Source of the DNA: Thermoplasmata archaeon M9B1D | GTDB taxonomy: Archaea; Thermoplasmatota; E2; DHVEG-1 | Assembly (NCBI GenBank): GCA_002900535.1 | Contig: MUGC01000001.1 | Location: 1-35,238, forward strand | Reading direction: 5' to 3' | DNA length: 35,238 nucleotides | Shown here: positions 1,383 to 35,238 of the stretch, one piece after another | Layout: every line of letters begins with the position of its first letter | Position numbering within the stretch: the first letter of the stretch is position 1 | Notes under the pieces: generated by a model | The model's input: the letters and a program-made list of their open reading frames with translations, nothing else | Database searches by the model: none | What the model was told of the DNA's origin: nothing | Program-made: the position numbers and the translations under genes

Positions 1383-1565
1383 TTATCCTTTTTTATTGTT
1401 TAATTCCTCAAAACTTTTCCATTTTTGATTAGGCAATTTGACTCTTAAATCATTAGTCAAATTAGCAAAGATTATTTTAATGTCATCTAATAAATCGCTT
1501 AAGGATTGTCTTGAGTTATAAGAAGTAAATCTCTTTTCACTTCCATTTTCTAAATACACTAACAT
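1383..1565 (-). CDS. hypothetical protein (first gene of the leftward operon)
   Basis: 60-aa ORF preceded by a strong SD (aaagggaggaattATG). Confidence 0.65.
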   Translation of the reverse strand: MLVYLENGSEKRFTSYNSRQSLSDLLDDIKIIFANLTNDLRVKLPNQKWKSFEELNNKKG

Positions 1566-1584
1566 AATTCCTCCCTTTGTTATG

Positions 1585-1711
1585 AGGGGATTTCTCCCCT
1601 CTTGGAGAACAACGCTTTAAAACATTGCTCTCCGCCCATACGGTTGGTTGAATGAGTGGGGAGAGAGTGGTAATGCAACAATTAACAGAAATTATTGCCT
1701 CTTCCCCCACG
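1585..1711 (-). promoter_or_regulatory. Structured GC-rich 5' leader: three stem-loops on the minus-strand transcript
   Basis: H1 spans 1711-1657, with an inner stem 1699-1691/1684-1676. H2 pairs 1634-1626 with 1613-1605. H3 is gagggga-GAAA-tcccctc (1602-1585). Two positions are G.U on the minus strand but C.A on the plus strand. The H3 loop is a GNRA tetraloop only on the minus strand. Confidence 0.55.
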
Positions 1712-1797
1712 TGAACCTAATTAAATGGTTTAATTATTTATATAACTCAATGTTATCTGTATAAATAATCAAGTTAAATTTTAATCAAGTAAACAAA

Positions 1798-1826
1798 TTA
1801 TTACATTATATTTCTGATTTGTCAAC
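1798..1826 (-). promoter_or_regulatory. Sigma70-like leftward early promoter (PL-like)
   Basis: On the minus strand: TTGACA (1826-1821), 17-nt spacer, AATAAT (1803-1798). Two direct TAATCAAGT repeats (1767-1775, 1783-1791) lie around and just downstream of the start-site region. Confidence 0.45.
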
Positions 1827-3469: not shown

Positions 3470-4089
3470 TTTACGCAATAGACATTGAAACAATACCAAA
3501 TGAAGAGGCAATTTGTTTATTACCGGAAGTAAAAGCAAAAGCAAATTTAAAAGACGAAAAAAAGATAAAAGAGGATATTGAGGCAAAAAGACAAATACAA
3601 ATAGAGAAAATGGCTCTTTGTCCCGAATTTGGCAAAATTGCTTGTATAGGAATTTATGGAGAGGATAAAAAAGAAGTTTTAGTTGGAGAAGAAAAAGAAA
3701 TATTACAAAAATTTTTATTTGAATTTTTACCAAATATAAATTTGGCACAAATTGTAACTTATAATGGAAAGGGGTTTGATTTTAATTTTATAATAAAACG
3801 TGCTTTGTATTATAGATTAGTTCGTATTTGGGAATTAAAAGTATGGTGCGATAAATATAATGCTACTAATATGCACGTGGATTTAATGTCTGAATATTGT
3901 AGATATGGAGAATATAAAAGCTTGGATTTATTAAGCGCTGTTTATTTAGGAGAAAAGAAAATTGAATTTGATGTCAAAGAAATTCCCGAATTGATGAAAA
4001 CCGAAGAAGGAATAAAAAAATTAAAAGAATATTGTTTAAAAGACTGTGAATTAACTTATAAATTAGCAAAAAAATTTGGATATGAATAA
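3466..4089 (+). CDS. RNase H-fold 3'-5' exonuclease (PolB-exonuclease-like, PF10108-type)
   Basis: MIYAIDIETIPN (ExoI DxE motif), YNGKGFDFNFI (ExoII-like) and a C-terminal YCLKDCELT (ExoIII-like Y..xD). Confidence 0.7.
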   Translation: MIYAIDIETIPNEEAICLLPEVKAKANLKDEKKIKEDIEAKRQIQIEKMALCPEFGKIACIGIYGEDKKEVLVGEEKEILQKFLFEFLPNINLAQIVTYNGKGFDFNFIIKRALYYRLVRIWELKVWCDKYNATNMHVDLMSEYCRYGEYKSLDLLSAVYLGEKKIEFDVKEIPELMKTEEGIKKLKEYCLKDCELTYKLAKKFGYE

Positions 4090-4300
4090 CAATAAAGAAT
4101 ACGTAAAAATAACAGATAAACAAGGCGAATTATTACCGCTAAGAAAAATTATAAAGAAGATAATCAATTTAACTTACAAGCTTAAATTGATACCTACTGA
4201 AGCTTGTAAAAAGCTTAAAATTGGTAGGGCTACTTTTTATCGATATGCTGATAAGAAGAATTTTAATAAAAAAAAGAGGAGAAATAATGTTAAAAAATAG
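4076..4300 (+). CDS. small helix-turn-helix DNA-binding protein
   Basis: 74 aa. ...EACKKLKIGRATFYRYADKKNF is resolvase/HTH_7-like, followed by a basic tail. Confidence 0.6.
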   Translation: MDMNNNKEYVKITDKQGELLPLRKIIKKIINLTYKLKLIPTEACKKLKIGRATFYRYADKKNFNKKKRRNNVKK

Positions 4301-9295: not shown

Positions 9296-9340
9296 TTAAT
9301 AGTTAAAATTAACTTTGTTGGAAAATAAATATATGTTAAA

Positions 9341-9365
9341 CGGAGGTAAAAGACCTCCGTTTTTT
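9341..9365 (+). terminator. Rho-independent terminator between convergent genes
   Basis: cggaggt-aaaag-acctccg followed by TTTTTT. On the minus strand only a short T-run (ttt) follows. Confidence 0.75.
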
Positions 9366-14038: not shown

Positions 14039-14062
14039 TTAAAACCTCAAAAAAGGGGATTA

Positions 14063-29830: not shown

Positions 29831-31246
29831 TTAAAAAGGTCTACTACCGACTAAAACAGTTCTATTTCCGCCTTTCAAATATCTTATTATTGAAGCCAAA
29901 CTATCCGGAGCATCATCATTTTTGGATTTATCATTATAATTTTGACATTGGCTAATATAATTCGGGTCAGTTCCTTGCAAAAAATAAATATCTTTCCAAG
30001 CGGGGTATAAATGAGTCATTATTTTAAGATGTTTATTATCGTGTTCGTGATATGAAATAATATATTTACTCTTTTTTGCATTTTCACCTTTATCATCGTT
30101 TTTTTCAGTTCTTATTTGACCACATTTGTACTTTACACGGTATAACTCTATTTCAGTTAAACAATCATTAATATGTTTTTGCCATAATTTGCCAAATACA
30201 TAAAGATTATTTCCTACTATTTTAATAATTGTAAATGCAGTCCCGTCTTTTCCACCGAAACCTTTATCAATATGTCCGAAACCATTTTCAATTAATTTCT
30301 CTTGTTCTTTTGTAGCAAATTTTAATCCTTTAAAGTTAGAATTTATTTTGCTATCAGGTTCTTGTTGATATTGGGAATTAAAAACCCAAGGCAATCTTTC
30401 TCTTAATTTCTTTAATTTTTTGGTTGATATTTTTTCTTCCCAAATAGATTTTTCATTTTGTAAGGCTTGTATTTTTATTAAATCCCAATCTTTTTTCCAA
30501 TTATCTTTATCTTCTTCTTTTAAACCTTTATTATATTTACCTTCTTTCATAAGATAGCCTGCTAAATCTTCTTCTTTCAATCTTTGCATGATAATAATTA
30601 TAGGAACATCATCTCTTCTTAATCTTGTTCCTAAAGCATTATCGAATTTATAAATACAATCTTCTCTTTTAGTTTCAAAAATAATATCAGTTGCTTTAAT
30701 CGGGTCATCAATTATCATTGCGCCACAAAATTTCTTAACTGCAGGATTACCAGCGTCAAGACCTGTAATTGTACCACCCATTGAACCAGCAGTCAAACCA
30801 CTTCTTCCAATACTTCCAATTATAGACCAATTTGTTTTTGAATCTTTATCTTTTTGAAATTTATATGACCATAATTTACTACAGACTTCTCCTGATAATA
30901 TTTCTTTTATTTCTCCAGAATGTTTTTTAATTAAAGTATCGGAATAAGAAGTATATAAGAAACAATTATTTTTATTTCTTATAAAGCACCATGCGATAAA
31001 ATATTCAACAATAATTGATTTACCAAAACCAACAGGAATATTAATTATTAAATTTTTTATAGTTTTATAATTAGCTCTATCTTCTAAAGCTTTTATTATT
31101 TCATTATGGAAATCTTTAAAAGTAAATTTTGCACCAGTTCTAAATCTATGAACAATCTTAATAAATCCTTTCAATGATTTTTCACAAACTAATTTAACAA
31201 CAGCTTTTTCTTCATCGGTCGGAAAATATTCATCAAAACTTTTCAT
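29831..31246 (-). CDS. terL: Terminase large subunit
   Basis: Walker A is IPVGFGKS. Walker B is GAMIIDDPIK. The coupling motif is IIIMQRLKEEDLAGYL. The C-terminal nuclease motif is NDDAPDSLASIIRYL. Confidence 0.9.
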   Translation of the reverse strand: MKSFDEYFPTDEEKAVVKLVCEKSLKGFIKIVHRFRTGAKFTFKDFHNEIIKALEDRANYKTIKNLIINIPVGFGKSIIVEYFIAWCFIRNKNNCFLYTSYSDTLIKKHSGEIKEILSGEVCSKLWSYKFQKDKDSKTNWSIIGSIGRSGLTAGSMGGTITGLDAGNPAVKKFCGAMIIDDPIKATDIIFETKREDCIYKFDNALGTRLRRDDVPIIIIMQRLKEEDLAGYLMKEGKYNKGLKEEDKDNWKKDWDLIKIQALQNEKSIWEEKISTKKLKKLRERLPWVFNSQYQQEPDSKINSNFKGLKFATKEQEKLIENGFGHIDKGFGGKDGTAFTIIKIVGNNLYVFGKLWQKHINDCLTEIELYRVKYKCGQIRTEKNDDKGENAKKSKYIISYHEHDNKHLKIMTHLYPAWKDIYFLQGTDPNYISQCQNYNDKSKNDDAPDSLASIIRYLKGGNRTVLVGSRPF

Positions 31247-33739: not shown

Positions 33740-33869
33740 GTTAAGAGATTACTTCCATTTTCTCTTAACAATCCAACTTAACTCCTTATGGATAAGTGAT
33801 TATATAGGAGTCCATATGGAAAATCTTTTTTTTTAGATTTTTTTTAATAAGGGATATAATCACTTATCC
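33740..33869. promoter_or_regulatory. Nested inverted repeats with A/T tracts in a 173-nt intergenic gap (origin- or operator-like)
   Basis: A 9-bp inverted repeat gttaagaga/tctcttaac lies at 33740-33748/33761-33769. A 16-bp inverted repeat ggataagtgattatat/atataatcacttatcc lies at 33790-33805/33854-33869. The second encloses the palindrome tccatatgga and aaaatct-T-run-agatttt. Confidence 0.45.
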
Positions 33870-34943: not shown

Positions 34944-35238
34944 AGTTTCCCTCGTAAATTTTGTTAATATTTTTTAAACACCAATCAATATTGGCTTTCC
35001 AATTTCTTGGATTATCTCCATTAAGAAACGAGGATTTATTGACTATTTGGCAAAAAGCTTTCCAATCTTCTATTGACTCAAATAGCGGATTTCCTTTTTT
35101 GTCTTTCAATGTTTTATTTCCTATTAAATTTTTCAAAATTTCATTGCGGGGGGGAGAATTTATTGTAGCTTTCGGAAGAGTTTTGCAAATTTCATTCCAA
35201 ATCGACATTAACTCTAAGATTATATCCCCCCCCTCTTT
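34936..35238 (-). CDS. Junction-spanning CDS, C-terminal part (same gene as 1-501)
   Basis: The track lists only the internal-Met fragment 34936-35208 (MSIWNE...). The frame stays open to the window edge and is in phase with 1-501. The C-terminal FLNGDNPRNWKANIDWCLKNINKIYEGNYD is a motif I have seen at the ends of phage replication-associated proteins. Confidence 0.75.
   Translation of the reverse strand, partial: KEGGDIILELMSIWNEICKTLPKATINSPPRNEILKNLIGNKTLKDKKGNPLFESIEDWKAFCQIVNKSSFLNGDNPRNWKANIDWCLKNINKIYEGNYD
35095..35238. repeat. Terminal direct repeat, right copy (identical to 1-144)
   Basis: Exact 144-nt match read directly. Confidence 0.95.

Follow-up and report, generated by a model that had tools for sequence, protein, structure and literature searches.

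The window analysed here is the whole 35,238-nt contig MUGC01000001.1 (assembly GCA_002900535.1, Thermoplasmata archaeon M9B1D), which looks like the genome of a tailed phage of a bacterium. Near its left end, ahead of a leftward string of open reading frames (ORFs), lies a 5' untranslated region (UTR) of about 225 nt, here called the leader. Three hairpins in it, H1, H2 and H3, cover 127 nt and begin at the predicted position +81. Folding predictions support the view that the 5' UTR of the leftward operon carries an RNA-type structure that is unusually stable and specific to one strand. The features described for this locus in a first-pass annotation, made from the letters alone, are all present, although each of its coordinates was one too high (H1 runs from 1710 to 1656, not from 1711 to 1657). 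In the direction of transcription the features are as follows.

1797..1825, minus strand: sigma-70-type promoter as a whole, 11/12 consensus match
1825-1820, minus strand: -35 element TTGACA (sequence scan)
17 nt, minus strand: promoter spacer (sequence scan)
1805-1804, minus strand: extended -10 TG (sequence scan)
1802-1797, minus strand: -10 element AATAAT (sequence scan)
~A1790, minus strand: predicted transcription start, from the position of the promoter
1790-1782 and 1774-1766, minus strand: two direct ACTTGATTA repeats, at about +1 to +25
1730..1772, minus strand: AU-rich 5'-proximal hairpin, at about +19 to +61, in the minimum-free-energy fold of the full leader
1656..1710, minus strand: composite hairpin H1 (fold)
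1634..1655, minus strand: unpaired C-rich linker of 22 nt, UCAUUCAACCAACCGUAUGGGC (fold)
1604..1633, minus strand: hairpin H2 (fold)
1584..1601, minus strand: hairpin H3 (fold)
1575-1570, minus strand: Shine-Dalgarno sequence GGGAGG, 9 nt after H3, with a 4-nt spacer to the AUG
1565-1563, minus strand: AUG of gene 1; the ribosome binding site spans 1563..1575
1383..1565, minus strand: gene 1, which encodes an ORFan protein of 60 aa and opens the leftward string as its first cistron

The near-consensus promoter TTGACA-17-AATAAT that had been proposed on the minus strand was confirmed with 11 of 12 matching bases at the corrected position 1825-1797, and it shares the best promoter-like score of the window with two other 11/12 sites. 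A promoter scan and reading of the sequence gave no second promoter between this site and the first start codon, including the interval just 5' of H1. The two direct ACTTGATTA repeats reported to follow the promoter were also recovered. They are the only exact copies in the genome, and the count obtained with one mismatch allowed is at chance level. Because of their position, the repeats are likely to be a DNA operator for a regulator, more so than a part of the RNA element.

H1 consists of 20 bp with an energy of -23.0 kcal/mol. Its plan, from the base upwards, is a lower stem of 7 bp (GUGGGGG/UCCCCAC), a 1x1 A.C mismatch, a middle stem of 4 bp (AGAG/CUCU), a 7-nt 3' bulge (AUUACCA), an upper stem of 9 bp (GCAAUAAUU/AAUUGUUGC) and a 6-nt loop (UCUGUU). 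The second hairpin, previously given as a 9-bp stem, is present but comprises 13 bp around a UUAA loop (GGAGAGCAAUGUU-UUAA-AGCGUUGUUCUCC), with three G.U pairs. A mini-ORF, AUG-UUU-UAA, is found at the apex of H2 (1625-1617, minus strand), 2 nt past the Shine-Dalgarno-like GGAGAG, and is probably incidental. H3 (GAGGGGA-GAAA-UCCCCUC; 7 bp, -12.4 kcal/mol) carries a GNRA cap. No U-tract follows it, so it is not an intrinsic terminator; as none of the hairpins is followed by a U-tract, the leader is neither an attenuator nor a stand-alone small RNA. The 40 pairs of H1-H3 comprise 19 G-C, 16 A-U and 5 G.U. All three hairpins share the same composition of their arms, with a purine fraction of 0.69-1.0 in the 5' arms and of 0-0.31 in the 3' arms: the Shine-Dalgarno-like purine arms GGGGGAAGAGG, GGAGAG and GAGGGGA face the 3' arms CUCUCUCCCC, UUCUCC and UCCCCUC. 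The 3' arms of H1 and H2 are anti-Shine-Dalgarno sequences, and every 3' arm has anti-Shine-Dalgarno potential.

The 225-nt UTR folds with -76 kcal/mol (z = -7.36, with 0 of 200 shuffles as good), as compared with z = -3.23 for its plus strand, and a 137-nt core reaches -58.5 kcal/mol (z = -6.45). Among 2006 windows of 140 nt from both strands of the genome, the core window ranks first by energy, the next unrelated window having -37.5 kcal/mol and the opposite strand of the core window -43.3 kcal/mol. It is also ranked first on the GC-corrected residual of a regression of minimum free energy on GC content, at -5.8 standard deviations; the GC content is 0.45-0.46 in the leader and 0.272 on average in the genome. 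Wobble pairs restricted to the minus strand had been cited as evidence of selection at the RNA level. Such pairs were found, but their number is five rather than two (1704/1662, 1694/1679, 1628/1609, 1624/1613 and 1622/1615), and all become A.C on the plus strand. H2 has -16.8 kcal/mol on the minus strand versus -6.4 kcal/mol on the plus strand, and the GNRA loop of H3 exists on the minus strand only, as had been stated, since GAAA becomes UUUC on the other. With DNA parameters the values are -24.8 kcal/mol (z = -4.0) for the minus and -20.9 kcal/mol (z = -2.9) for the plus strand; this shrinkage of the strand contrast argues for selection at the RNA level. What supports a cis-acting RNA on the transcribed strand is the computed thermodynamics together with the strand asymmetry.

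In the fold of the full leader, the bases of the gene 1 Shine-Dalgarno sequence are unpaired with a probability of 0.64-0.95, steadily from 10 to 45 °C. Blocking of purine arm R1, R2 or R3 by constraints in ViennaRNA lowers this accessibility from ~0.8 to ~0.01-0.1. Transcripts shortened so as to begin at 1697, 1672 or 1620 have lost the 5' arm of H1 or H2 and show the same drop when folded, the released 3' arm then base-pairing with the Shine-Dalgarno sequence. The occluded state costs ~10 kcal/mol. As modelled, the leader would be 'on' by construction, and capture of any purine arm could in principle switch it off; the effect of blocking an arm is a computed property and no evidence of regulation. 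Strong UTR hairpins that are among the most stable windows (491 on the minus strand, and 33741-33776) also come after two leftward promoter-like sites in intergenic gaps, at 630-603 and 33904-33877. They comprise a 12-bp perfect hairpin (~556-525) 3' of the former site and a ~17-bp inverted repeat from ~+1 (33868-33790) 3' of the latter, which suggests that strong UTR hairpins after leftward promoters are a general habit of this phage.

The contig ends in an exact direct terminal overlap of 144 nt (1-144 = 35095-35238) and is therefore a circular or terminally redundant unit of 35,094 bp, a complete phage genome. ORFs on the minus strand occupy 1565 to 1 and continue from 35094 to ~9364, which confirms the string of about 27 kb in one direction across the junction that the first-pass annotation had described. 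The contig was binned with an archaeal (MBG-D) metagenome-assembled genome (MAG), and is probably mis-binned there; its traits are those of bacterial phages, namely sigma-70-type promoters, strong Shine-Dalgarno sites and an endolysin. In addition to the latter, TerL (29831-31246), a tape-measure protein and a J-like tail protein are encoded, as are the recombinase Erf and an exonuclease. The nearest relatives of TerL (55-62% at the amino acid level) are found on contigs of Gastranaerophilales and Clostridia MAGs, whereas identity to the TerL of cultured phages is <33%. One of the TerL-relative loci (L288) adjoins a tRNA gene on a 147-kb Gastranaerophilales contig and is probably a prophage integrated at a tRNA attachment site. 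The host of the phage may be a sediment relative of the Gastranaerophilales and Clostridia lineages. Judged by sequence comparison, the early-left region is unique to this phage. A 74-aa protein of the rightward operon (4076-4300, plus strand) has sub-threshold Pfam matches to HTH_17 and DUF1492 (E 0.0015-0.007) and is a possible small transcription regulator. The terminator-like hairpin at 1982-2017 (1986-2013, followed by a T-run) closes a small unit on the plus strand; it scores 22 bits against the Rfam family CRISPR-DR61 (gathering threshold 38, E 0.59), probably by chance, and would be a solitary repeat-like unit if the match were real.

A cmscan-type comparison with Rfam, proposed with the first-pass annotation, returned no family. 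Inputs of 35 kb, 901 nt and 241 nt were compared with Rfam 15, both at the gathering threshold and with E up to 10. At the gathering threshold the leader had zero matches, EAR, riboswitches, ribozymes and phage RNAs included; below it the best match had 14 bits with E above 3, and nothing was credible. ARAGORN reported no tRNA or tmRNA. Gene 1 forms a singleton in a set of 5.8 billion protein clusters, with no relative in IMG/VR and no Pfam or PHROG match. In all, ~160 related viral and prophage loci were scanned with a covariance model of the leader. The 80 loci with relatives of Erf (encoded 1.3 kb from the leader) and the 63 loci with relatives of a DUF6291 protein (encoded 1.1 kb from it) showed no synteny and no blastn or covariance-model match. 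TerL found nothing as a single query; a TerL alignment found 15 loci, which have only late genes in common with the phage and gave no covariance-model match. Minimum-free-energy scans of the regions upstream in these relatives revealed no analogous leader, only the tRNA/att site of L288 (6920-7005) and AT-rich hairpins. On one viral contig, near a relative of the DUF6291 protein, a very stable stretch of 0.52-0.62 GC in a 0.30 GC background was seen (L215, 10921-11130), which may be a tRNA or other structured RNA.

Wider searches gave the same picture. The covariance model found nothing in 154 bacterial genomes (3 with TerL-relative loci and 151 sampled from the class of one of these), and in the archaeal family of the bin itself, 108 genomes yielded chance-level short matches only. 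A DNA pattern scan had zero matches in genome contigs (185k species genomes), as had two further DNA patterns in IMG/VR. The same kind of scan of JGI metagenome contigs had one match (L277, 1259-1325, minus strand), a hairpin whose imperfect lower-stem arms (GTGGGGGAAGAG / CTCTCTCCCCAC, 12 bp) are identical to those of H1 and whose interior differs. It lies just past a stop codon on a contig of 52% GC, shares the lower stem only, and was judged coincidental. The 18-mer of H3, GAGGGGAGAAATCCCCTC, occurs in >112 IMG/VR contigs, as compared with a few by chance, and none of these matches extends into the leader. Many copies have AA directly before them (AAGAGGGGAGAAATCCCCTC), a hint at a recurrent terminator-type hairpin with a GNRA cap. 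The 18-mer is generic, and so are the GNRA hairpins matched by it. The runs holding the stretch are two DNA runs of one study, both possibly its source, and no RNA run. No variants over the leader were seen in the two source runs, in which the contigs are identical, with no extra contigs, and no other contig of the source metagenomes matches the leader at >=80%, so that it is not a multicopy repeat. The leader is an orphan, a singleton without comparative support.

The reading that we favour, tentatively and with a probability of roughly 0.4, is that of a structured 5' untranslated leader which would act through the mRNA itself, by affecting translation of the first cistron and its stability, and not on RNA polymerase. 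In vivo, the three local hairpins would form in turn during RNA synthesis, each purine-rich 5' arm capturing its pyrimidine-rich, anti-Shine-Dalgarno-like 3' arm. Because the pyrimidine arms would be captured in this way, the Shine-Dalgarno sequence of gene 1 would be single-stranded and translation on by default. A block of this stability, immediately 5' of a site to which ribosomes bind strongly, would hinder 5'-end-dependent decay, as in stabilisers of the ompA, aprE and SP82 type, and half-life as well as translation may be affected. For the mRNAs of ompA, aprE, ermC and phage SP82 it is established that a 5' structure together with a strong Shine-Dalgarno sequence stabilises the message independently of translation (review PMC7509114; reference list of PMC3997798). 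The leader's position, 3' of the best promoter-like site and 5' of the first start codon, speaks for such a role, as do the strength and uniqueness of the fold, its strand asymmetry, the lack of U-tracts, the open Shine-Dalgarno sequence with its occlusion once a purine arm is lost, and the strong UTR hairpins after two other promoter-like sites. The strong and accessible adjacent Shine-Dalgarno sequence of 5' stabilisers is found here (GGGAGG, 4-nt spacer, 0.64-0.95 unpaired); as for a stem-loop near the 5' end, the AU-rich hairpin lies at +19 and the GC hairpins at +81 from the predicted start.

Several points weigh against this reading. There is no homologue and no covariation support; the whole argument is thermodynamic and was computed for one sequence. 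The GC-rich hairpins begin ~80 nt from the predicted 5' end, while classical 5' stabilisers are at the very end, and three hairpins totalling ~-52 kcal/mol exceed the need of such a role. The anti-Shine-Dalgarno property may be a by-product of GC-rich stems made from purine/pyrimidine tracts.

A put-like or nut-like antitermination element, as proposed in the first-pass annotation, was not borne out. According to this explanation the leader would be a cis-acting processive antitermination RNA, like HK022 put, Bacillus EAR, pLS20 conAn2 or Tn916 canT, which binds RNA polymerase and makes it terminator-resistant along the 27-kb string. Its position would fit, just after the strongest promoter and at the head of a unidirectional string, and so would a stable multi-hairpin RNA on the transcribed strand. 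A protein that could take this part was not recognised: searches with Pfam and PHROGs gave no N-, Q-, NusG/RfaH- or ConAn1-like protein among the leftward or rightward early ORFs. The RNA antiterminators so far described from mobile elements, among them conAn2 and canT, consist of GC-rich stem-loops, are poorly conserved in sequence and are hard to recognise (PMC8191782, PMC11658703), so that lack of similarity is weak evidence against antitermination. Nevertheless, the expected correlates are missing, and we regard this explanation as rather improbable. Two scans of the string (minus strand, 1565 to ~9364), the second one looser, gave no convincing intrinsic terminator on which such an RNA could act, Rho-dependent sites not being predictable. 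Terminator-like candidates in the string are at chance level (12 sense versus 8 antisense) and nearly all weak; 11 of the 12 sense candidates lie inside ORFs and the other, at 14054, is a weak intergenic one. Convincing terminators are situated outside the string, at 8682-8660 on the minus strand and at 9338-9362 and 1986-2013 on the plus strand. The string also contains three identical minus-strand promoter-like sites, TTGACA-16-TAATAT, at 630-603, 33904-33877 and 26897-26870, the first two of them in intergenic gaps, and a single PL-driven 27-kb transcript is thus not required. Rfam showed no similarity to EAR. The covariance model recovered only the leader itself from the whole window, without a second copy, and showed no similarity to put, its best score in the immunity region of HK022 being 7.3 bits (E 0.14, below significance). 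The three hairpins are independent of one another and nearly perfect, of a simple build that lacks the stem irregularities and tertiary features seen in put (PMC9378689). A boxA/boxB (nut) interpretation was rejected, the boxA-like GUUCUCCA being weak (5/8) and paired inside the H2 stem, with no N-like match.

The accessibility calculations also bring a regulated translational switch into consideration, in which a trans-acting factor (a phage or host protein, a small RNA or the 30S subunit) captures a purine arm, and the freed pyrimidine arm shuts gene 1 and the genes coupled to it at a set time. The drop in Shine-Dalgarno accessibility from ~0.8 to 0.1 or less on blocking of R1, R2 or R3, the same purine/pyrimidine polarity in all three hairpins, and the 7-nt bulge and 6-nt loop of H1 as possible recognition sites are in its favour. 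Against it, no candidate effector was identified, and the off state, ~10 kcal/mol higher, would have practically no population if left to itself. Stem composition may have produced the complementarity as a side effect, and no conservation shows that loops or bulges matter; a switch is judged unlikely. Processing by RNase III appears still less probable. Here H1 and/or H2 would be cut, as are the T7 R-sites, the lambda N leader and SP82 early RNA, the AU-rich 5' part removed and a defined stable 5' end left. Phage early leaders are classical substrates of this enzyme, and the 20 bp of H1 amount to about two helical turns with an asymmetric loop (1x1 mismatch, 0x7 bulge), next to the 13-bp helix of H2; however, the 7-nt bulge breaks coaxial stacking, and cleavage is a prediction from helix shape. 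SP82 is mentioned in PMC7509114 and PMC4838370. RNase III processing does not exclude the favoured action on translation and stability and is compatible with it.

A role at the DNA level is very improbable; the element would then be a site of primosome assembly or single-strand initiation, part of an origin, or a set of inverted repeats bound by protein, and its RNA fold would be incidental. It lies in a divergent control region, its three hairpins within ~130 nt recall G4-type ssi signals, and GGGGAGA, a motif present in both orientations, shows enrichment across the genome (6 copies versus 1.3 expected). Under DNA parameters, however, the fold is much weaker and less strand-specific (z -4.0 versus -2.9), and the five mismatches become G.U on the transcribed strand only. 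The stretch could instead be without a dedicated function, either as a neutral, fortuitously palindromic GC-rich remnant in an AT-rich mosaic early region, or as a small coding ORF. It is an orphan without relatives or variants in an early-left region that is as a whole unique to this phage, and a 57-aa GTG ORF (1710-1537) overlaps the leader hairpins. This ORF was rejected as coding: it starts with GTG, lacks a Shine-Dalgarno sequence and overlaps the ribosome site of gene 1, and it is unremarkable because chance long ORFs are expected in a GC-rich stretch of an AT-rich genome. The rank-1 fold of the genome, the strand-specific wobble pairs and the lack of any >=80% match elsewhere in the source metagenomes, which leaves no multicopy repeat, make absence of function quite improbable. 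A bolder proposal, a previously unseen class of phage cis-regulatory RNA, is doubtful. It would be either an RNA-only processive antiterminator, in a phage with terminase relatives in genomes of Gastranaerophilales and Clostridia, or a 'triple-locked' translational switch that cages three anti-Shine-Dalgarno tracts until a timed factor frees one and silences the first early gene.

If the favoured control of translation and stability holds, the leader would be a compact, designable example, in which three caged anti-Shine-Dalgarno tracts keep a ribosome site open. If an RNA antiterminator were the correct explanation, control of the put/EAR/conAn2/canT type would be extended to a new phage group. 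No relative of the phage lineage concerned is in culture, and neither a repressor nor an antiterminator is recognisable in it. The main value of the leader is that of a well-defined candidate for a reporter test and of a seed model for marine-sediment viromes.

Among known systems, put of HK022 is an RNA of ~70 nt with two irregular stems in a V shape and a triplex in stem I, located after both PL and PR, and it suppresses terminators up to 10 kb away (PMC9378689). Binding to the zinc-binding domain of the RNA polymerase beta' subunit also characterises put. The leader is likewise a stem-loop cis RNA that follows an early promoter, in a phage with a long operon and with no recognisable protein antiterminator, but it consists of three simple hairpins over 127 nt in a single copy, with no match in sequence or structure and no terminators detected downstream. 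The elements conAn2 of pLS20 and canT of Tn916 are RNA regions of 260-600 nt in operons with mapped terminators, and conAn2 requires the protein ConAn1, which is encoded just upstream (PMC8191782, PMC11658703). What they share with the leader is GC-rich stem-loops placed early in very long mobile-element operons, low-GC hosts and poor sequence conservation; in contrast to conAn, no gene lies between promoter and leader, the core has 127 nt and no terminators were found. As in the nutL/N-leader of lambda, a leader of the PL type has a short boxB-like GNRA hairpin (H3) shortly ahead of gene 1. GNRA hairpins are generic, however, and the single-stranded boxA and the arginine-rich N-like protein of lambda have no counterpart here (GUUCUCCA matches boxA at 5/8, inside the H2 stem). 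Screens for GC-rich intergenic regions in AT-rich genomes use the same signal, a GC-rich, ORF-free stretch as seen here in a 27% GC genome, but demand multiple homologues and covariation (PMC6429828, PMC8723152, PMC11109978), whereas the leader is a singleton. The 5' stabilisers are functional classes and not sequence families, so homology cannot show membership. They differ from the leader in having one or two hairpins (here three), in the placement of the hairpin at the very end (here ~80 nt from the predicted 5' end) and in Shine-Dalgarno-like tracts that are free (here base-paired). With ompA of E. coli, aprE of B. subtilis and the polypurine stabiliser of SP82, the leader has in common a long structured 5' UTR whose last hairpin lies just 5' of a strong, accessible Shine-Dalgarno sequence, as well as purine-rich Shine-Dalgarno-like tracts, and with SP82 in particular the setting in a phage early mRNA.

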